Positions 1 to 23,048 of a stretch of 64,000 nucleotides of DNA are shown one piece after another. Below the pieces are notes generated by a model, which was not told the origin of the DNA, did not search any database, and saw only the letters and a program-made list of their open reading frames with translations. The stretch's first letter is position 1, and every line of letters starts with the position of its first letter. The position numbers and the translations under genes are program-made. The DNA lies in assembly GCF_056746865.1 (NCBI RefSeq), contig NZ_CM163382.1; one strand, given 5' to 3'.

Positions 1-31
1 GCCCTGAAAGGCATGGTCATTCCGCATTGCA
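1..31 (-). other. Fragment homologous to an internal region of the beta-propeller paralogs; possible truncated fourth copy continuing left of the window
   Basis: 18-nt exact match (gaaaggcatggtcattcc, positions 7-24) to paralog B at about 3118-3135; minus-strand translation gives GMTMPF, a motif shared with paralogs B and C; the adjacent 32-119 is AT-rich non-coding. Confidence 0.3.
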
Positions 32-767
32 TTTTTAAAGTTTTTTATCCATTATTTATTCTGATTAATAATCAAAATTGAAATCCTGTCTTTGAAATGT
101 AATGGCAGTGCAACAATCACTATTCAGAACAGAAATCACCTTTCTCTGCCTGAACACAATTAATCAATATATCCCAGTGACCGTTCTCTAAGCGAGCTAC
201 ACCATAATACCCAGCCAGAACCAGGGTTTTTTCTGTACAACTGATATAACCAGTGCACATTTTTACCTCGCTGGGTAAATCTGGCTGAACAACATCATCC
301 CCGATTATTTGCCACACACCATAATCAGACGTTGCCCAGACACAATTTTCATACCATACCATTTGCCTGAACGGTAAGGTTAACTCCCCCCGATGAATCA
401 TCTTCCATTGATCTTTTCGACCTTTAAATACAGTACCGCTTTGCGCACCGATATAAACATAGCCATCCTGACCACAACAGATAGATTCAATGAGCATGTT
501 GCTGGGAAAATGAATTTGCCTCCATTCATCACCATCGAAATTCCAGACATCTCCTTTACCGCCTGCGGCATAGATATCATTTTCAGAGAAGCCATCCACA
601 CAACTAAAACCAGCAGCATCCAGGAATAGCATCTGTTCACGGATTGTTTTAATTTCATCTTGCGCAGGGAGATGGATACCTTTATTTAGTTTCTCCCAAT
701 TATTTCTATCTATCCTGCGAACAACACTACGTGCGGATCCTACAACATACAATCGATGGATTTGCCC

Positions 768-1673
768 CTATATTTCCAGACACCTGTTATCACTTAACCC
801 ATTACTGGCCCGCTGCCGTAGATATTCCCGTGGCGAGCGATAACCCAGTGCACTATGCGGATGCCATTCGTTATAATGCTCGAACGCCTCTGCAAGGTTC
901 TTTGCTGCCGTTAACCCGTCTGGTTTAGGCATGATACTGATGTAGTCACGCTTTATCGTTTTCACGAAGCTCTCTGCTATGCCGTTACTCTCCGGACTCC
1001 GCACCGCCGTGTTCTTCGGTTCAAGCCCCAACATCCGGGCAAACTGCCGTGTTTCATTAGCCCGGTAGCATGAACCATTATCCGTCAGCCACTCTACTGG
1101 AGACGCCGGAAGCTCGTTGCCGAAGCGGCGTTCCACCGCTCCCAGCATTACGTCCTGTACTGTTTCACTGTCGAAGCCGCCCGTAGTGACTGCCCAGTGC
1201 AGTGCCTCACGGTCACAGCAGTCCAGCGCGAACGTGACTCGCAGTTTTTCTCCGTTATCACAGCGGAACTCGAACCCGTCAGAGCACCATCGTTGATTGC
1301 TTTCTTTCACGGCCACTTTGCCAGTATGTGCCCGTTTCGATGGCGGTACAGCGGTTTTTCGCTCAAGCAACAGCGCATTCTGGCGCATGATCCGGTAAAC
1401 ACGTTTGGCATTGATCGCAGGCATACCATCAAGTTCGGCCTGTCTGCGAAGCAGCGCCCATACCCGACGATAACCATACGTGGGCAGCTCTCCGATAACA
1501 TGGTGTATACGGAGAAGCACATCCGTATCATCTGAGTGACGGCTGCGGCGACCATCTTTCCAGTCATCGGTTCGTCTGAGAATGACGTGCAACTGCGCAC
1601 GCGACACCCGGAGACAACGGCTGACTAAGCTTACTCCCCATCCCCGGGCAATAAGGGCGCGTGCGCTATCCAC
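768..1673 (-). CDS. insD: IS2 transposase OrfB (InsD)
   Basis: 301-aa ORF recognised as IS2 InsD (ends ...[31 protein letters not shown]); integrase catalytic core. Confidence 0.9.
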
Positions 1674-1996
1674 TTTTTTGCACGCCCGTATTCAACGGCT
1701 TCTTTAAGGAGTTCATTTTCCATCGTTTTTTTGCCGAGCAGGCGCTGGAGTTCTTTAATCTGCTTCATGGCAGCAGCAAGTTCAGAGGCAGGAACGACCT
1801 GCTCTCCTGCGGCCACAGCAGTAAGACTTCCCTCCTGGTATTGCTTGCGCCAGAGAAATAACTGGCTGGCTGCCACACCGTGTTGCCGGGCAACAAGGGA
1901 GACCGTCATTCCCGGTTCAAAACTCTGCTGAACAATAGCGATCTTTTCCTGTGTAGTACGCCGTCTGCGTTTCTCCGGTCCTAAGACATCAATCAT
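1631..1996 (-). CDS. insC: IS2 OrfA (InsC), helix-turn-helix protein
   Basis: ORF contains [56 protein letters not shown]; start placed at the internal Met matching the 121-aa InsC; overlaps insD as expected for a frameshift-fused transposase. Confidence 0.85.
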
Positions 1997-2497
1997 CTGC
2001 TCTCCAATGACTAGTCTAAAAACTAGTATTAAGACTATCACTTATTTAAGTGATATTGGTTGTCTGGAGATTCAGGGGGCCAGTCTAATCGACCACCAAT
2101 AGTCCGGGTATTGCTAATGGCAAATTCATATGGGATCGGTTCTTCAAGCCCTTCAAAACCACTACCTATAGCAAAAACCTCATTTTCCATTGTAACGCCC
2201 ACGTACTGACTGAATGGAATACTGGTTGTAGCCGAAAATATCTTGTCCATTCCTTCATAACCGCTGTATCCCCATTGCTCTCCTAATGGTTCATCAAAAA
2301 AAAAGGAAACAAAATTTTTTCTTGCCAGATGTTCTTCCATTACAGGGTCTATATCATCTCGCTTTTCTCGTGTAGTTATATAAATATAACCAGTGTCTCT
2401 TACTGCAACACCATTAATATAAAACCCTTTGAATATTTCATTGTACTCATCTTGAGTAATAATCATGTTTTTAATCTCATATTATTTTCATTTGTTT

Positions 2498-2812
2498 TTA
2501 CTGGAGTAAGAGTATGGACGGGATTGTTTTCCACCCATGCCCTTTCTGGAATCCCGGTGTCGCCGGAACATTCCCTTCACTGGTAGAGAAATACGAGCGA
2601 TCTTTCTGTGCCACCATCGACTTACAGATAAATACGGTAGCTGTTCCGTTCTGCAAATCCCGGGCATACGCCGTGTTGGAATAAGGCACAACGACCGGGC
2701 CTGTGGGCGGAGGAGGAGGGGACCAGCAGGGATCGGGAAATGCGCCAGCAGATTTCCCGTCAGACGCTCTGGAGCAGGCTTCCCGCCCGTTGATATAAAC
2801 GTTAGTTTCCAT
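2498..2812 (-). CDS. Hypothetical small ORF (104 aa, proline-rich) between paralog B and paralog A
   Basis: ORF ends 31 bp upstream of the paralog A start; its first codons (METNVY) lie in the conserved repeat downstream of B and C; the remainder is a GC-rich segment absent from the C-to-B spacer; coding status uncertain. Confidence 0.25.
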   Translation of the reverse strand: METNVYINGREACSRASDGKSAGAFPDPCWSPPPPPTGPVVVPYSNTAYARDLQNGTATVFICKSMVAQKDRSYFSTSEGNVPATPGFQKGHGWKTIPSILLLQ

Positions 2813-3365
2813 AATGTGCTATCCGTGTACCCACTTTCCTTTAAATTAACTGCTGGCCCGGGAGGCTATTCAAACGCCATTGAATCAAAGAGGACATTCC
2901 AGGCATTACCATCATAAATAGCAGCTCCTCTGGAGCCACAAACCATCATCACTGTCCCATCGGGGGAAACATCAATTCTTTTACTTAAAACGGCCACTTC
3001 AGGAGGGACGGGTTTATGTTTTGCATGCATGGCGAGCACCAGTTTGTCATCTTCCAGTACCCAGATGCCATAATCACTGGCACACCAGAGACGTCCATCA
3101 AACCATCCCATGTCGAGGAAAGGCATGGTCATTCCACCATGCGTAATTTGTGTCCATTGCTCATTGCGACCCTTCCATATAGCACCGTCAAAATCAGCAA
3201 TATAAACAAATCCGTCACCGGCACAGCAAACTGTGTACAGAAGTTTATTTGTCGGAAAAGGGAGTTTTTTCCATTGCTCACCATTAAAGTGATAAACGGT
3301 TCCCGTTCCACCCACTGCATACATATCTGACTCGGAAAAACCAGATAAATCCTGAAATAAGCTTC
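2796..3365. repeat. Direct repeat copy 1, about 570 bp: 3' half of paralog B plus about 70 bp of its 3' flank
   Basis: Near-identical to 3943..4512 (a handful of mismatches); repeat spacing 1147 bp. Confidence 0.85.
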
Positions 3366-3906
3366 TGGACATCGACTCAGCCTTCCGTTCCAGGAATCCA
3401 TCGGGAACAGGAATAGTTTGTGAAGCATCCAGCCAAACCTGATGATTAATTCGTTTATATATTCTTAACCCTCCCCCAATTGCATAGACACTTGTTCCTA
3501 CTCTGACTACCTTAATTATAGCTGTTCTCATGTCTGAGGATTTAGAAATAGGAATATCCAGATTATTTTCTCGTCCCTTGTATTCTCTGGTTTTGTAGCT
3601 TATGACTTCACAGTCGATATCAACTATAACTAATTCAGTTTGGGAAGGTGACCATCCAGCCGATATCGTTGGATAGCTCAAATTACCGAAAGACATCCCA
3701 AACACCCTGTTTTCAGGAGGGTTGTCAATAACTATTGATACCAGCTTGTGTTTAGGCATGTAATAGTCGTTGCCATATTCGATATGATTTTCATCAATTT
3801 TTTCAATTAATAATAAGCCAACGCGGCCATGTTCAAAGCCATATGTACAATCATATACTTCAAAATTTTTAAAGGTTTTATCCCAACGTTCTTGACTAAT
3901 AATCAT
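2866..3906 (-). CDS. Hypothetical protein, paralog B (346 aa) with beta-propeller-like repeats resembling BNR/Ycf48 or Kelch blades
   Basis: Intact 346-aa ORF; the C-terminal ~155-160 aa (from DLSGFSESDMYAVGG) are identical to paralog C, the N-terminal half about 60 percent identical; repeated blade-like motifs (YAIGGG...W, YAVGGTGTVYHFNGEQW, FDGAIWKGRNEQW, YDGNAW). Confidence 0.75.
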   Translation of the reverse strand: MIISQERWDKTFKNFEVYDCTYGFEHGRVGLLLIEKIDENHIEYGNDYYMPKHKLVSIVIDNPPENRVFGMSFGNLSYPTISAGWSPSQTELVIVDIDCEVISYKTREYKGRENNLDIPISKSSDMRTAIIKVVRVGTSVYAIGGGLRIYKRINHQVWLDASQTIPVPDGFLERKAESMSRSLFQDLSGFSESDMYAVGGTGTVYHFNGEQWKKLPFPTNKLLYTVCCAGDGFVYIADFDGAIWKGRNEQWTQITHGGMTMPFLDMGWFDGRLWCASDYGIWVLEDDKLVLAMHAKHKPVPPEVAVLSKRIDVSPDGTVMMVCGSRGAAIYDGNAWNVLFDSMAFE

Positions 3907-3942
3907 TTCATTTCCTTAGTTATCACAATTATCATCATAGCT

Positions 3943-4512
3943 ATCTATAAACGTTAGTTTCCATAATATGCTATCCGTGTGCCCACTTTCCTTTAAATTA
4001 ACTGCTGGCCCGGGAGGCTATTCAAACGCCATTGAATCAAAGAGGACATTCCAGGCATTACCATCATAAATAGCAGCTCCTCTGGAACCACAAACCATCA
4101 TCACGGTCCCATCGGGTGAAACATCAATTCTTTTACTTAAAACGGCCACTTCAGGAGGGACGGGTTTATGTTTTGCATGCATGGCAAGCACCAGTTTGTC
4201 ATCTTCCAGCACCCAGATGCCATAATCACTGGCACACCAGAGACGTCCATCAAACCATCCCATGTCGAGGAATGGCATGGTCATTCCACCATGCGTAATT
4301 TGTGTCCATTGTTCATTGCGACCCTTCCATATAGCACCGTCAAAATCAGCAATATAAACAAATCCGTCACCGGCACAGCAAACTGTGTACAGAAGTTTAT
4401 TTGTCGGAAAAGGGAGTTGTTTCCATTGCTCACCATTAAAGTGATAAACCGTTCCCGTTCCGCCCACTGCATACATATCCGATTCGGAAAAACCAGATAA
4501 ATCTCGGAATCG
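3943..4512. repeat. Direct repeat copy 2, about 570 bp: 3' half of paralog C plus its 3' flank
   Basis: Near-identical to 2796..3365. Confidence 0.85.
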
Positions 4513-5058
4513 ACTTCTGGTTATTGCTTCTACCTTCCTATCTAACAATCCATCGGGGACAGGCAGGTATGTAGAATGTTCCCGCCAAATTTGGTGATCA
4601 ACACGTTTGTATATTCTGAAACCACTACCGATAGCGTAAACACTGTTTTCAATTCGTACTACTTTTATTATAACGGAAAACATATCGATAGAACCTGGTA
4701 TGAGTATATTTATACTTTCTTCTACTCCTTTGTATACATCTTCTTTATAACTCATAACATCACGGTCCTGACTGACCATAACATATTCGGTCTGAGATGG
4801 GGGCCAACCAGAAGATATAGTCATCAGAGATATCCCTGTTGCGCGACGACCATATATGCGATATTTTTTGGAGAGGGTAAACGTAATGGAAATTAATCTC
4901 TTTTCAGGTGGGTAAAAAGGGTTTTCATATTCGGCATGCTCCTCATCTACCACTTCAATCAATGAAAGACCTACTTTTCCATGCTCGTAACCATAGGTGC
5001 AGTCATATATATAAAAGCCTTTGAGATATTTCTGATACGATTCTATATCTATGATCAT
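4018..5058 (-). CDS. Hypothetical protein, paralog C (346 aa) with beta-propeller-like repeats
   Basis: Intact 346-aa ORF; C-terminal half identical to paralog B, N-terminal half diverged; low GC. Confidence 0.75.
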   Translation of the reverse strand: MIIDIESYQKYLKGFYIYDCTYGYEHGKVGLSLIEVVDEEHAEYENPFYPPEKRLISITFTLSKKYRIYGRRATGISLMTISSGWPPSQTEYVMVSQDRDVMSYKEDVYKGVEESINILIPGSIDMFSVIIKVVRIENSVYAIGSGFRIYKRVDHQIWREHSTYLPVPDGLLDRKVEAITRSRFRDLSGFSESDMYAVGGTGTVYHFNGEQWKQLPFPTNKLLYTVCCAGDGFVYIADFDGAIWKGRNEQWTQITHGGMTMPFLDMGWFDGRLWCASDYGIWVLEDDKLVLAMHAKHKPVPPEVAVLSKRIDVSPDGTVMMVCGSRGAAIYDGNAWNVLFDSMAFE

Positions 5059-5083
5059 TTATCACCTCAAATATCTTCATCGT

Positions 5084-5383
5084 TTATAACACCCCCATCA
5101 CCTGCATTGATTTTTGCAGAGTTAAATCACCACAGGTATAAGCGTCTTGGTAAGCTTTATCCAGTTGCGCTTTCAAACAAGATTTATCACAACCGTACAT
5201 TAATGCAACCTCATCAATTACCATACATCTGGCATCTTTATAACTCATTTCTTTTCCAAAATGCTTTTCTTCTATTAGAGTGCCTGTAGCTGAGTGTAAT
5301 GCACCATGTGAACCAGTACGATTGTCTTTTCCTTCCAGACAAATTGTAGGCGCTTTGCCTTCGGTATATTCCCCCCCCAGCAC
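5084..5383 (-). CDS. Hypothetical small protein (99 aa), tightly coupled upstream of paralog C
   Basis: ORF ends 26 bp before the paralog C start; GTG start codon inferred; a run of 8 G on the coding strand sits at codons 3-5; no recognisable homology. Confidence 0.35.
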   Translation of the reverse strand: MLGGEYTEGKAPTICLEGKDNRTGSHGALHSATGTLIEEKHFGKEMSYKDARCMVIDEVALMYGCDKSCLKAQLDKAYQDAYTCGDLTLQKSMQVMGVL

Positions 5384-5751
5384 TTTCTTGTTGGATATTT
5401 GCTACGGGGCATTCTTTATATTAATTTTTCTTCCTTATGGAGTATCTCTGTTTGACACTTTAAAGTCTCTATGAGAATTATAAGATTTTTTTTAAAATAA
5501 TACGTTTTCAGATTTAGCAACAGGATTTTCACTCATACGATTAATATACGATATTTTAATCTCAAAAATATATTTGGCTGGTGAAGCTATCTGGGGTGTA
5601 TATTCACACCACATATATTATCAAAAGGCAGTTACGCTACCGCCATACCCTGATAAAACTCACCATCTGCACGAAACGGATTTTACGCTTTTTCTTCCGG
5701 CGAAATATCAAATTCTCAATTCAAATAATATCTATTGCGTTATATGACCTA

Positions 5752-7200
5752 TCACTCCCTCTCCGGCAGCACAATCACAAACCTTGTTCCTCGCGCATCT
5801 GACGTTACCGCAACTGTGCCTTTATGCGCGACAACAATCGATTTCACTATCGCCAGCCCAATGCCGCTACCTTCGCCTTTTCGCTGGCGGGAAGGATCAA
5901 CGCGGTAGAAACGGTCAAACAATCGCGGTAAGTGTTCGGGCGCAATGGGCGTACCGGGGTTTTCGACGGTAACTTGCACCTGATGATCGACCGCCTGGCA
6001 GCGTACTACAATAGCCTCTCCGGGTGGCGTATAACGCAGGGCATTAGAAAGCAGGTTGTTTAACGCCCGACGCAGCATCAGCGGATCGCCCGCAACCTGA
6101 CACTCGTCACCAACAAACCGCAACTCCACGCCGCGATCTTCCGCTAACGCCTCGAAAAAATCGAACACTTTGCCGACTTCATCCGCCAGGTTGAGCATTT
6201 TCTTTTCGGGGATTAACTGGTTGTTATCGGCCTGGGCGAGAAACAACATATCGCTGACCATTTTCGCCATTCGCGTCAGCTCTTCGAGATTAGAGTAGAG
6301 CACATCTTCCAGCTCCTTCTGGCTGCGTGACTGGCTGAGGGCGATTTCGGTTTGCGTTATGAGATTCGTAATTGGTGTACGAATTTCGTGAGCGATATCC
6401 GCTGAGAAATTGGACTGGCGAGTAAAGACATCCTCAATACGCTCGATCATATGGTTGAACGACAGTACCAGCTGTTCCAGCTCAATCGGCACGGTCTGCG
6501 GGTCAAGGCGAACGTCGAGATCTTTCGAGGTGATATTCTGGATTTGACGGCTGACGCTGCGGATCGGCGCGTGACCTTTATGTACCGCCAATAGCACGAT
6601 AAAGACGATCAGGATGCTGATGATCGATGCGGTCATAATAAGTTTATTCATCAAATCATTTATGTAATGAAGATGAAAATCGATCGAAAGCGCGATGTAG
6701 AGCGTATAAATCGGTTTGCCGTCCACCAACGGGCCAACCGGCAAGTTAATCATCCGCCAGTTGCTGTGTTCCATATGCCCGTGACCGTGGCCCGGCATCA
6801 TCATTGTCGGGCCGGAAAGGAGATACACCTCGCCGCCCCGCGCGTCTTTATCGGGTATGGCATCACGTGCAAACTCGCGGATATCGGGCGCACCGGGGGA
6901 GTGATATACCGTTTTACCGTGGCTATCTGCCAGGGAGATCAACACATTGGAATAACCACTGACAATATCTTCCAGCGTCATTAAGCGTCGGGCTTGCGTT
7001 TCGTCAGGGTGATTAAGTACCCGTTCAAGTGTGGCGCTAATTTCTTTTAAATCATTAATATCCTGCTCGGCAAAATGCACTTTTACCGAGTGGATCATTA
7101 TCCATGCAAAGGCGAAAAACGCCGCGATGGTGGCGAGGCTGATAAAAAAGGTCAGGCGGGTTGCCAGCGAAAACGGGCGCTGAAATGGCTTACTGACCAT
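5752..7200 (-). CDS. cusS: Copper/silver-sensing histidine kinase CusS
   Basis: Translation matches CusS ([16 protein letters not shown]...; periplasmic sensor, HAMP, HisKA and ATPase regions); start set at the internal Met of the 486-aa ORF. Confidence 0.92.
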
Positions 7201-7960: not shown

Positions 7961-8029
7961 CCTGTCACCGGAAAATCAGAGCCTGGCGGGTAAAGTTGGC
8001 GACATAAAATCACCAGAAATTATGTGCCT

Positions 8030-9412
8030 ATGTCTCCTTGTAAACTTCTGCCATTTTGTGTGGCCCTTGCGCTAACCGGTTGTTCACTGGCACCGGATTA
8101 TCAGCGCCCGGCAATGCCCGTGCCGCAGCAGTTCTCACTCAACCAGAACGGCCTGGTTAACGCAGCAGATAACTACCAGAACGCGGGCTGGCGCACCTTT
8201 TTTGTTGATAATCAGGTGAAGACGCTGATTAGCGAGGCGCTGGTGAATAACCGGGATTTGCGCATGGCGACGCTGAAAGTGCAGGAAGCGCGGGCGCAAT
8301 ATCGTCTGACCGATGCCGACCGCTACCCACAGCTCAATGGCGAGGGCAGCGGCAGCTGGAGCGGCAATCTTAAAGGCGATTCAGCCACGACGCGGGAGTT
8401 CTCGACTGGCCTTAACGCCAGCTTTGATCTCGATTTTTTCGGTCGCTTAAAGAACATGAGCGAAGCCGAGCGACAAAATTATTTAGCCACTGAGGAAGCC
8501 CAGCGCGCGGTGCATATTCTGCTGGTTTCTAATGTCGCGCAAAGCTATTTCAATCAGCAGCTGGCGTATGCGCAATTGCAAATCGCCGAAGAAACGCTGC
8601 GTAATTATCAGCAGTCATATGCGTTTGTCGAAAAACAACTGTTGACCGGTAGCAGCAATGTTCTGGCGCTGGAACAGGCTCGCGGGGTGATTGAAAGTAC
8701 CCGCAGCGACATCGCTAAACGTCAGGGGGAACTGGCGCAGGCGAATAATGCATTGCAACTGTTATTGGGAAGCTACGGCAAGCTGCCGCAAGCGCAGACA
8801 GTAAACAGCCACAGCCTGCAAAGCGTTAAATTACCGGCGGGCTTGTCGTCGCAAATTTTATTGCAGCGCCCGGATATTATGGAAGCTGAACACGCGTTAA
8901 TGGCGGCTAATGCCAATATTGGTGCTGCACGTGCAGCATTTTTCCCGTCTATCAGCCTGACCAGCGGAATATCGACCACCAGCAGCGATCTGTCGTCATT
9001 ATTTAACGCCAGCAGCGGGATGTGGAATTTTATTCCCAAAATTGAGATCCCCATTTTTAATGCCGGACGCAACCAGGCCAATCTGGATATCGCCGAAATT
9101 CGCCAGCAGCAGTCGGTGGTGAATTATGAACAGAAAATCCAGAACGCCTTTAAAGAAGTGGCAGATGCGCTGGCATTACGTCAAAGCCTGAACGATCAAA
9201 TTAGCGCCCAGCAGCGTTATCTGGCGTCGCTGCAAATTACTTTGCAACGGGCGCGGGCATTATATCAGCACGGCGCGGTAAGTTATCTGGAAGTGCTGGA
9301 TGCTGAGCGTTCTTTATTTGCAACCCGACAAACTTTACTTGACCTGAATTATGCCCGTCAGGTTAATGAAATTTCTTTATATACCGCCTTAGGCGGCGGT
9401 TGGCAGCAATAA
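8030..9412 (+). CDS. cusC: Outer-membrane efflux lipoprotein CusC
   Basis: Translation MSPCKLLPFCVALALTGCSLAPDYQRP... with a lipobox; TolC-like channel. Confidence 0.93.
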   Translation: MSPCKLLPFCVALALTGCSLAPDYQRPAMPVPQQFSLNQNGLVNAADNYQNAGWRTFFVDNQVKTLISEALVNNRDLRMATLKVQEARAQYRLTDADRYPQLNGEGSGSWSGNLKGDSATTREFSTGLNASFDLDFFGRLKNMSEAERQNYLATEEAQRAVHILLVSNVAQSYFNQQLAYAQLQIAEETLRNYQQSYAFVEKQLLTGSSNVLALEQARGVIESTRSDIAKRQGELAQANNALQLLLGSYGKLPQAQTVNSHSLQSVKLPAGLSSQILLQRPDIMEAEHALMAANANIGAARAAFFPSISLTSGISTTSSDLSSLFNASSGMWNFIPKIEIPIFNAGRNQANLDIAEIRQQQSVVNYEQKIQNAFKEVADALALRQSLNDQISAQQRYLASLQITLQRARALYQHGAVSYLEVLDAERSLFATRQTLLDLNYARQVNEISLYTALGGGWQQ

Positions 9413-18556: not shown

Positions 18557-19684
<1,128 letters not shown>

Positions 19685-20302: not shown

Positions 20303-21641
20303 CATAAGCGCTAACTTAAGGGTTGTGGTATTACGCCTGATATGATTTAACGTGCCGATGAATTACTCTCACGATAACTGGTCAGCAATTCTGGCCCATA
20401 TTGGTAAGCCCGAAGAACTGGATACTTCGGCACGTAATGCCGGGGCTCTAACCCGCCGCCGCGAAATTCGTGATGCTGCAACTCTGCTACGTCTGGGGCT
20501 GGCTTACGGCCCCGGGGGGATGTCATTACGTGAAGTCACTGCATGGGCTCAGCTCCATGACGTTGCAACATTATCTGACGTGGCTCTCCTGAAGCGGCTG
20601 CGGAATGCCGCCGACTGGTTTGGCATACTTGCCGCACAAACACTTGCTGTACGCGCCGCAGTTACGGGTTGTACAAGCGGAAAGAGATTGCGTCTTGTCG
20701 ATGGAACAGCAATCAGTGCGCCCGGGGGCGGCAGCGCTGAATGGCGACTACATATGGGATATGATCCTCATACCTGTCAGTTCACTGATTTTGAGCTAAC
20801 CGACAGCAGAGACGCTGAACGGCTGGACCGATTTGCGCAAACGGCAGACGAGATACGCATTGCTGACCGGGGATTCGGTTCGCGTCCCGAATGTATCCGC
20901 TCACTTGCTTTTGGAGAAGCTGATTATATCGTCCGGGTTCACTGGCGAGGATTGCGCTGGTTAACTGCAGAAGGAATGCGCTTTGACATGATGGGTTTTC
21001 TGCGCGGGCTGGATTGCGGTAAGAACGGTGAAACCACTGTAATGATAGGCAATTCAGGTAATAAAAAAGCCGGAGCTCCTTTTCCGGCACGTCTCATTGC
21101 CGTATCACTTCCTCCCGAAAAAGCATTAATCAGTAAAACCCGACTGCTCAGCGAGAATCGTCGAAAAGGACGAGTAGTTCAGGCGGAAACGCTGGAAGCA
21201 GCGGGCCATGTGCTATTGCTAACATCATTACCGGAAGATGAATATTCAGCAGAGCAAGTGGCTGATTGTTACCGTCTGCGATGGCAAATTGAACTGGCTT
21301 TTAAGCGGCTCAAAAGTTTGCTGCACCTGGATGCTTTGCGTGCAAAGGAACCTGAACTCGCGAAAGCGTGGATATTTGCTAATCTACTCGCCGCATTTTT
21401 AATTGACGACATAATCCAGCCATCGCTGGATTTCCCCCCCAGAAGTGCCGGATCCGAAAAGAAGAACTAACTCGTTGTGGAGAATAACAAAAATGGTCAT
21501 CTGGAGCTTACAGGTGGCCATTCGTGGGACAGTATCCCTGACAGCCTACAAAACGCAATTGAAGAACGCGAGGCATCGTCTTAACGAGGCACCGAGGCGT
21601 CGCATTCTTCAGATGGTTCAACCCTTAAGTTAGCGCTTATG
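20303..21641 (+). mobile_element. IS186 insertion sequence with a 10-bp target site duplication (ggagtaatcc)
   Basis: Terminal inverted repeats cataagcgctaacttaagggttg (20303-) and caacccttaagttagcgcttatg (-21641); flanked by ggagtaatcc at 20293-20302 and 21642-21651; target is the GC-rich palindrome gcggggagtaatccccgc. Confidence 0.9.
20352..21470 (+). CDS. insL: IS186 (IS4-family) transposase
   Basis: 372-aa ORF MPMNYSHDNWSAILAHIGKPEELDTSARNAGALTRRREIRDAATLLRLGLAYGPGGMSLREV... Confidence 0.93.
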   Translation: MPMNYSHDNWSAILAHIGKPEELDTSARNAGALTRRREIRDAATLLRLGLAYGPGGMSLREVTAWAQLHDVATLSDVALLKRLRNAADWFGILAAQTLAVRAAVTGCTSGKRLRLVDGTAISAPGGGSAEWRLHMGYDPHTCQFTDFELTDSRDAERLDRFAQTADEIRIADRGFGSRPECIRSLAFGEADYIVRVHWRGLRWLTAEGMRFDMMGFLRGLDCGKNGETTVMIGNSGNKKAGAPFPARLIAVSLPPEKALISKTRLLSENRRKGRVVQAETLEAAGHVLLLTSLPEDEYSAEQVADCYRLRWQIELAFKRLKSLLHLDALRAKEPELAKAWIFANLLAAFLIDDIIQPSLDFPPRSAGSEKKN

Positions 21642-22253: not shown

Positions 22254-22874
22254 TTAATCGTGTTGGCACAGCGTTATGACTATCTTTTCTTTTATCTGCC
22301 AGTGCACAGCAAACTGCTCATCCTCTAGTCGAATGATGATCCGCTGTTTATTCCAGCTAATTATCTGATAATCCAGAAAACCTTGAGCGGCCTGTATCTT
22401 GCTTGCCTTAAATGCGCTCTCTTTGGCGGAAAATGCCAGTGTCAGCGCCAGAGAAAAGGTTAAACCGCATTCTGCGAGTCGCTCGTGTTCTGCTGGTGTA
22501 ATAATGTTGTCTGTCAATTCTCTTGCGGTTTGTACAGAGAAAATCTCTTCGATATCAATGCCAATCGGTTGACGAGATACCACGGCTAATGCCGTAGTCC
22601 CGCAGTGGCTAATACTGCCGTATACCTCCGCAGGCCACACAGGTTGGCGTAGCTCGCCGATAGCGGGCACATATTTATAGCCATATTCCCGCAAGGCATA
22701 AACAGCAGCGATTCGTCCAGCTAAATGCTCTGTTTTACGTTTACGTCCAGCGTGTTGCAGTTGTGCGTAGTGTGGCAGCCAGAGTAAATCCTGCTCGCGA
22801 AAACTCGCCGGATCGAACTCAACAAAATGCAGCGTATGTCCGGCAAAGGGGAGGGCGGTATGCGTAGTTTTCAT
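22254..22874 (-). CDS. entD: Phosphopantetheinyl transferase EntD
   Basis: Translation from the internal Met (MKTTHTALPFAGHTLHFVEFDPASFREQDLLWLPHYAQLQHAGRKRKTEHLAGRIAAVYALREYG...) matches EntD; the exact start is ambiguous. Confidence 0.9.
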   Translation of the reverse strand: MKTTHTALPFAGHTLHFVEFDPASFREQDLLWLPHYAQLQHAGRKRKTEHLAGRIAAVYALREYGYKYVPAIGELRQPVWPAEVYGSISHCGTTALAVVSRQPIGIDIEEIFSVQTARELTDNIITPAEHERLAECGLTFSLALTLAFSAKESAFKASKIQAAQGFLDYQIISWNKQRIIIRLEDEQFAVHWQIKEKIVITLCQHD

Positions 22875-23048
22875 ATCGACTATATTCGAGACTGATGACA
22901 AACGCAAAACTGCCTGATGCGCTACGCTTATCAGGCCTACATGGTCCTGCAATATATTGAATTGGCAAGATTTTTGTAGGCCGGATAAGGCGTTCACGCC
23001 GCATCCGGCATGAACGACGCGCACTTTGTCAACAATCTGACGTTAGCA

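Follow-up and report, generated by a model that had tools for sequence, protein, structure and literature searches.

The closest described counterpart of the transposon analysed here is IS2A of Escherichia coli K-12 (in yaiX, NC_000913 381260..382590), a 1331-bp element that encodes InsC and a 301-aa InsD, carries an A6G site and a 5-bp target duplication, and splits its host gene into two annotated fragments. The genes around the insertion are best compared with the T6SS effector–immunity pair Tse7–Tsi7 (PA0099–PA0100) from the vgrG1b cluster of Pseudomonas aeruginosa. Tse7 combines an N-terminal DUF4150/PAAR-like (PIPY) domain with a C-terminal Tox-GHH2 domain, and the gene located downstream provides its immunity (PMC4067218, PMC9846239). 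Also relevant are the orphan immunity arrays of T6SS and polymorphic-toxin loci, in which immunity-type genes are arrayed without a functional cognate toxin.

The locus described here, located within a window of 64,000 nucleotides (the whole stretch of DNA analysed) from contig NZ_CM163382.1, shares features with each of these systems. Its IS2 element has the same length, ends and gene content as IS2A and likewise interrupts a host gene, referred to below as paralog A. A Citrobacter cluster homologous to the locus resembles tse7-tsi7 in the domain architecture of the effector, in the presence of vgrG, DUF2169 and other genes of synteny type A, and in the downstream immunity slot, whereas the E. 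coli locus lacks vgrG, DUF2169 and an intact effector and consists of effector remnants and three downstream-type genes. As in orphan immunity arrays, these genes are mosaic by recombination, with near-identical 3' halves in two of them, and reside in an AT-rich, IS-rich island; unlike the known arrays, they belong to an uncharacterised, predicted beta-propeller family without a Pfam model, and their protective role is putative. Gene inactivation by IS2 with a 5-bp duplication is textbook knowledge, and the insertion as such is an ordinary knockout. The more useful part is its context, namely, a toxin-purged array in which the presumed immunity genes were kept.

A complete IS2 element splits paralog A

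Sequence inspection shows a complete IS2 element (1331 bp) at 757..2087, co-oriented on the minus strand with the gene that it interrupts. The inverted repeats of IS2 are known to be imperfect and 41/42 bp long (PMC3299598). In the window, IRR is located at the 757 end and begins TGGATTTGCCCC (the low-coordinate end reads TGGATTTGCCCCTATATTTCCAGAC), and IRL is located at the 2087 end and finishes GGGGGCCAGTCTA (the high-coordinate end reads GGTTGTCTGGAGATTCAGGGGGCCAGTCTA), the terminal inverted repeats of IS2 being present as IRL 5'-TAGACTGG... and IRR ...CAAATCCA-3'. An end search across the 64-kb window detected no IS2 ends besides those of this element. Aligned end to end with IS2A from K-12 MG1655, the element matches over 1331/1331 bp, with 56 substitutions and no indels (95.8% identity). 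Under ISfinder practice, copies of the same IS (isoforms) share about 95% nucleotide identity or more, a level that is narrowly exceeded here. With these substitutions and approximately 11 residue changes in InsD, the element is an IS2 isoform and not the K-12 copy.

The coding content is that of an intact IS2. The first gene, insC (orfA; 1631..1996, minus strand), encodes the 121-aa repressor/TnpA, counted from ATG, which is identical to InsC1 of K-12 and matches the NCBIfam model of the IS2 repressor TnpA (NF006928) with 275.8 bits (cut-off 229). The overlapping second gene, insD (orfB; 768..1673, minus strand), encodes the full-length DDE transposase part of 301 aa and matches the IS2 TnpB model (NF006918) with 707.8 bits (cut-off 597) over positions 1–301/301. 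The A6G (AAAAAAG) slippery site, at which a −1 frameshift fuses orfA and orfB, is found at 1673..1679 on the minus strand and is conserved at IS coordinate 409. Pfam searches recovered HTH_Tnp_1 among the IS2 products, along with the catalytic rve and rve_3 domains in InsD. The assignment of the two genes to InsC and InsD, made in a preliminary description from the sequence, is thus borne out by NCBIfam, Pfam and the alignment with IS2A, and every sequence-level hallmark of IS2 is present.

The element is flanked by direct copies of the pentamer ATCGA at 752..756 and 2088..2092, as expected for the 5-bp target duplication of IS2; the expectation for a canonical element to be bordered by an exact 5-mer repeat by chance is about 1/1024. 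The repeat had been reported in the preliminary description and was found at both ends on re-inspection, although the left-hand coordinates given there (753 for the repeat and 758 for the element) were one base too high, the actual positions being 752 and 757. Uninterrupted alleles contain a single ATCGA copy at the empty site.

Deletion of 757..2087 together with the 2088..2092 repeat copy joins ORF 2038..2466 to ORF 120..752 in frame, in agreement with the earlier prediction, and yields a gene of 1011 nt encoding 336 aa without internal stops, in which the junction reads ...NTRTIGGRLYVVGSARSVVRR... as anticipated. As defined by the ORFs and by this excision, the split paralog A extends over 120..2466 on the minus strand, and the insertion point follows nt 379 of the gene, inside codon 127. 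The 5' part (2088..2466, minus strand) corresponds to nt 1–379, that is, codons 1–126 and the first base of codon 127; its reading frame enters IRL and stops at 2038, producing a 142-aa product of which 15 residues are encoded by the IS. The 3' part (120..751, minus strand) covers nt 380–1011, stop included, and the TTG start assigned to it by the ORF finder at 752..750 is the native Leu127 codon of paralog A.

The reconstructed sequence has an exact natural counterpart. Window positions 1..5800, from which the element and one repeat copy were excised (4464 nt), are identical to E. coli 118UI (NZ_CP032515) at 4464/4464 positions, and in this strain paralog A is annotated as a 336-aa CDS (WP_000587531.1). 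The uninterrupted allele corresponding to the excision product was found in 118UI and, more broadly, in 151 genomes (see below). Paralog A is broken by IS2, and the annotation should combine ORFs 120..752 and 2038..2466 into one pseudogene, with the IS boundaries at 757..2087.

A toxin-purged array

All genes between window positions 120 and 7873 are encoded on the minus strand, and the array follows cusR-cusS when read 5' to 3' on it. The island lies between nfrB and cusS and has a GC content of 35–46%, compared to about 52% in cus. In strains 042 and 118UI, it reaches nfrB and contains ISEc1 copies, an IS1 and a SUKH-3 immunity-type gene; in 118UI, a 92-aa ORF is located approximately 125 nt downstream of paralog A.

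In transcriptional order, the array opens with a 3' effector fragment (5084..5383, minus strand; 99 aa) that retains the Tox-GHH2 domain only (32.9 bits, profile positions 31–120/122) and aligns with the end of a Citrobacter effector gene (locus L005, 12521..14086). It is followed by the intact paralog C (4018..5058, minus strand; 346 aa), which aligns with the gene following the third Citrobacter effector. Next come a 19-nt stub (~3964..3946, minus strand), which matches the beginning of an effector gene exactly, and the intact paralog B (2866..3906, minus strand; 346 aa). The last two members are a small ORF (2498..2812, minus strand; 104 aa), which matches the Tox-PAAR-like profile with 44.8 bits over positions 4–63/108, and the interrupted paralog A. 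Identity of paralog A to B and C is 27–31%, varying with the alignment, and is about 29% for B. Comparison of B with C reveals a mosaic, in which the 5' 540 nt are 40–65% identical and the 3' 500 nt are 97–100% identical.

The intact state of such a locus is found in Citrobacter. The Citrobacter freundii homologue of paralog A is 79% identical to it and starts 16 nt after the gene for a 526-aa effector, in which both the Tox-PAAR-like (94 bits) and the Tox-GHH2 (31 bits, cut-off 25) domains exceed the Pfam cut-offs. In C. freundii CP040698, this effector gene spans L005 6405..7985, with the Tox-GHH2 domain at residues ~383–526. Two further effector/paralog pairs follow in tandem, and the effector cluster includes vgrG, DUF6484, DUF2169, a thiolase-like gene and a HEAT-repeat gene. 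Clusters of this kind have been described as 'synteny type A' DUF2169 clusters (PMC11883445), and the same arrangement is represented by tse7-tsi7 of P. aeruginosa (PMC4067218, PMC9846239).

DNA alignment establishes the synteny of L005 with the window and accounts for the small ORF. Window positions 2813..2541 (273 nt) align to the start of the Citrobacter effector gene (L005 6404..6676), and positions 2541..111, with IS2 excised, align to L005 7926..9017, comprising the final ~60 nt of the effector gene and the gene downstream. The small ORF is the remnant of a PAAR-like (DUF4150/PIPY)::Tox-GHH2 T6SS effector gene: its first 91 codons are those of the effector, 80/91 residues being identical to the 526-aa Citrobacter protein, and around position 2541 they are fused to ~60 nt from the end of the effector gene. 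Since the excised window aligns to the two ends of the effector only, approximately 1.25 kb including the toxin domain is, judging from this alignment, deleted from the cognate effector in E. coli. Consistently, a DNA-level search of the complete E. coli genomes recovered the PAAR-like 5' region of the cognate Citrobacter effector gene but nothing similar to its toxin part.

All that remains of the three effector genes is thus a 99-aa 3' fragment, a 19-nt stub and a 91-codon 5' stub without Tox-GHH2, and the locus contains no functional cognate toxin. Each of the three toxins was lost in its own way, and the three downstream genes were kept in the E. coli array.

A predicted beta-propeller family with a putative immunity role

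Searches of Pfam and NCBIfam with paralogs A, B and C matched no family, and sequence comparison with the PDB produced weak matches to designed propeller blades (Cake), with no immunity protein among them. The AlphaFold2 model of paralog A, built with 60 homologues, has a pLDDT of 93.4 and a pTM of 0.91; it is all-beta, and the entire chain forms a propeller, a closed ring of blades with four antiparallel strands each. The best PDB matches of the model in Foldseek are 6- to 8-bladed propellers, including virginiamycin B lyase, RACK1 and the Pizza and Cake designs. Accordingly modelled, the protein is predicted to be a single-domain beta-propeller. In the model, the IS2 break falls between strands 117–123 and 126–131, inside a blade, so that neither fragment can fold and close the ring, and paralog A is inactivated.

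The family is small, with about 70 homologue clusters in 5.8 billion proteins. Neither the 70 word-seeded nor the 73 profile-search homologue matches included P. aeruginosa proteins or Tsi7; the profile search with 60 homologues added just three matches (P0071–P0073), none from Pseudomonas. We keep the paralog A family apart from Tsi7, to which sequence homology was not detected in these comparisons. The Snodgrassella homologue is a lone gene amid housekeeping genes and is uninformative with respect to effector pairing.

The gene neighbourhood offers the principal clue to function. In Citrobacter (L005 and L006) and Ralstonia (L007), which displays the same effector/downstream-propeller arrangement, the propeller genes are co-oriented with the effector genes and located directly 3' of them, with divergent paralogs paired with effectors that have divergent C-termini. 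Given this neighbourhood, and because in E. coli the toxins were deleted in three ways while the downstream genes were kept, the probable role of paralog A is that of an orphan immunity gene, directed at a T6SS nuclease effector of the Tse7 type.

A role of the propeller gene as an accessory or adaptor of the effector system, or one unrelated to it, appears unlikely, albeit less so than any other alternative considered here. [quoted passage not shown] However, that lone copy also resembles an orphan immunity gene, and a role outside immunity sits poorly with the occupation of the canonical slot 3' of each effector in Citrobacter and Ralstonia by one divergent paralog per divergent effector. 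Moreover, retention of the gene in E. coli despite the toxin deletions fits immunity and not an accessory function in delivery.

If paralog A is indeed an immunity gene, its loss would cost the cell nothing internally, the toxin part of the cognate effector being absent from the locus and, at DNA level, from the complete E. coli genomes, and would remove protection only against attackers, for instance Citrobacter, that fire this toxin variant. We infer that the insertion entails lost protection against one Tox-GHH2 variant, without self-intoxication because no cognate toxin is left in the locus.

Reach, age and distribution of the insertion

The outward −35 element of IS2 is located in IRR and requires a −10 element exactly 17 bp away, and IRL bears the inward promoter PIRL (PMC3299598, PMC9330008). 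Fusion promoters formed through the IRR −35 have been documented, for example, at ampC and acrEF (PMC9330008), raising the question of whether selection favoured the insertion because of a regulatory effect, with the outward −35 or read-through activating neighbouring genes. We consider this improbable. The preliminary description proposed that the outward-facing end could affect the small ORF and paralog B, but these are located upstream, on the IRL side of the insertion and on the same strand, and IRR at the 757 end points away from them, facing the 3' fragment of paralog A. The IRR contains a −35 hexamer TGGAAA, and the flank hexamers at 16, 17 and 18 bp (TCGATT, CGATTG and GATTGT, respectively) are poor −10 elements on inspection; a consensus promoter scan found no promoter-like sites at either IS2 junction, and a fusion promoter at the IS2 ends was rejected on both counts. 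Because IS2 is co-oriented with the array and the effector remnant and paralog B lie upstream, any polar or read-out effects would fall downstream, on the paralog A 3' fragment and on genes beyond window position 1, the counterpart of which in 118UI is the 92-aa ORF; a regulatory benefit would have as its reachable targets only the dead 3' fragment and whatever lies beyond that position.

Less probable still is that a repeat copy of IS2 was placed here by misassembly. Repeats commonly cause misassembly, and IS2 is multicopy in most E. coli, with a median of 3–4 places per genome, but an assembly error would not yield a perfect 5-bp duplication at the exact ends of a complete 1331-bp element.

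To assess the age of the insertion, we searched 5,426 complete E. coli genomes. Paralog A is carried by 153 of these, in all cases with at least 99% identity, and is uninterrupted in 151, including strains 042 and 118UI; the intact alleles come from many unrelated strains, some of which were isolated from poultry, cattle or wild birds. When each IS2/host boundary was taken as the midpoint of a 200-bp query, neither junction was retrieved from the 5,426 genomes among the matches listed, with up to 40 matched pieces considered per genome, so that a junction could in principle escape in a genome very rich in IS2. The best match in another genome comparison, E. coli SCU-105 (87% coverage), does not share the insertion: the apparent match is a join artefact, and the IS2 of this strain, 99.6% identical to that in the window, is located in paralog C.

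The flanks of the element are 100% identical to the intact alleles, which, along with the absence of both junctions elsewhere and the 151 genomes with an intact gene, indicates that the insertion is recent. The unsubstituted flanks, the perfect target duplication, the intact transposase genes and the lack of any other carrier among the complete genomes searched are all marks of recency, and the earlier suggestion of a recent inactivation of paralog A is upheld by this evidence. A recent, strain-private insertion of IS2, taken as one explanation together with the immunity role of the interrupted gene, is very probably correct. The reverse scenario, in which IS2 was present ancestrally and was later lost from the 151 intact alleles through precise excision, an event that does occur between target-duplication copies at low frequency, is not tenable, being effectively refuted by the spread of the intact allele over many unrelated strains and the confinement of the junctions to this genome among the matches listed, and disfavoured also by the unsubstituted flanks and intact IS ORFs.

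The insertion had further been taken to show that the array is dispensable under the conditions experienced by the strain. This holds for member A in this strain and does not extend to the array as a whole, because paralogs B and C are intact here. Single members have been hit in other strains as well: E. coli MSB1_7C carries an IS5 in paralog A, at a different site, and in SCU-105 the same IS2 variant interrupts paralog C. These independent IS insertions point to relaxed selection on single members. As far as the searches show, the other 150 of the 153 carriers have no such insertion in any of the three paralogs, and the array as a whole is therefore not obviously decaying.

These observations lead us to lean, if only slightly, towards a more general interpretation, in which members of this rare, unnamed beta-propeller family would confer immunity to Tse7-like PAAR-like/PIPY::Tox-GHH2 T6SS nucleases, a minority of the E. 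coli genomes (153/5,426) would keep the toxin-purged three-gene array to defend the cell against attackers like Citrobacter, and the IS2 and IS5 hits would represent member-by-member decay where the attacker is absent. The strain analysed here, MSB1_7C and SCU-105 provide natural knockouts of single array members.

Effector remnants in the E. coli array and their apparent intact counterparts

All three PAAR-like::Tox-GHH2 effector genes of the array, which lie on the minus strand, have been destroyed, each by a different route, and all three downstream beta-propeller genes (paralogs A, B and C) are still intact in 151 genomes. One remnant (window 2498..2812) retains 91 N-terminal codons after an internal deletion of ~1.25 kb; the second persists as a stub of just 19 nt from the 5′ end, ATGGAAACTAACGTTTATA (3946..3964); and all that survives of the third is a 99-aa Tox-GHH2 3′ fragment (5084..5383). 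In two Citrobacter freundii loci (CP040698 and DBKZQH010000001), three to four full-length PAAR-like::Tox-GHH2 effectors are arranged in tandem 3′ of vgrG-DUF6484-DUF2169-thiolase-like genes, with a divergent beta-propeller gene after each effector. These arrays appear to represent the E. coli remnant in its intact state. A homologue of paralog A (54% identity) is also found at 8001..8948 in two Snodgrassella communis loci (L008 and L009), where it is solitary among housekeeping genes (cysS, rpmE and PTS genes). No adjoining effector gene was called in either locus, and this homologue may represent a further orphan copy.

Mosaic structure of paralogs B and C

Paralogs B (2866..3906) and C (4018..5058) are mosaics: identity is just 40-65% over the 5′ 540 nt but 97-100% over the 3′ 500 nt, and the ~70 nt located 3′ of each gene are near-identical as well. 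This combination of divergent 5′ regions with near-identical 3′ and downstream sequences suggests recombination or gene conversion among the array members. The only sigma-70-like match on the minus strand within positions 1..5800, TGGAAA-18-TATGAT (3963..3934), is located inside the effector stub, just 5′ of paralog B, and could, as a consensus match, be a candidate promoter of this gene.

Insertion sequences in the array and elsewhere in the window

The IS2 that splits paralog A (757..2087, minus strand) differs from the K-12 reference copy, IS2A, by 56 substitutions. Changes in insC are mostly synonymous and the InsC protein is identical, whereas InsD carries ~11 residue changes. At 95.8% identity to IS2A, the element is near the conventional isoform boundary. 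The same array has been struck independently by IS elements in other strains: in E. coli SCU-105, an IS2 of the same variant (99.6% identity) occupies paralog C (8658..9988 in L002, the locus of that strain), and in E. coli MSB1_7C, an IS5 (~3806..5000 in the corresponding locus, L004) lies in paralog A at a site different from that of the window insertion. Outside the array, a 372-aa IS4-family transposase ORF (20352..21470, plus strand), flanked by ybdK (18557..19675) and entD (22254..23024), probably corresponds to IS186, an element present at the equivalent place in K-12.
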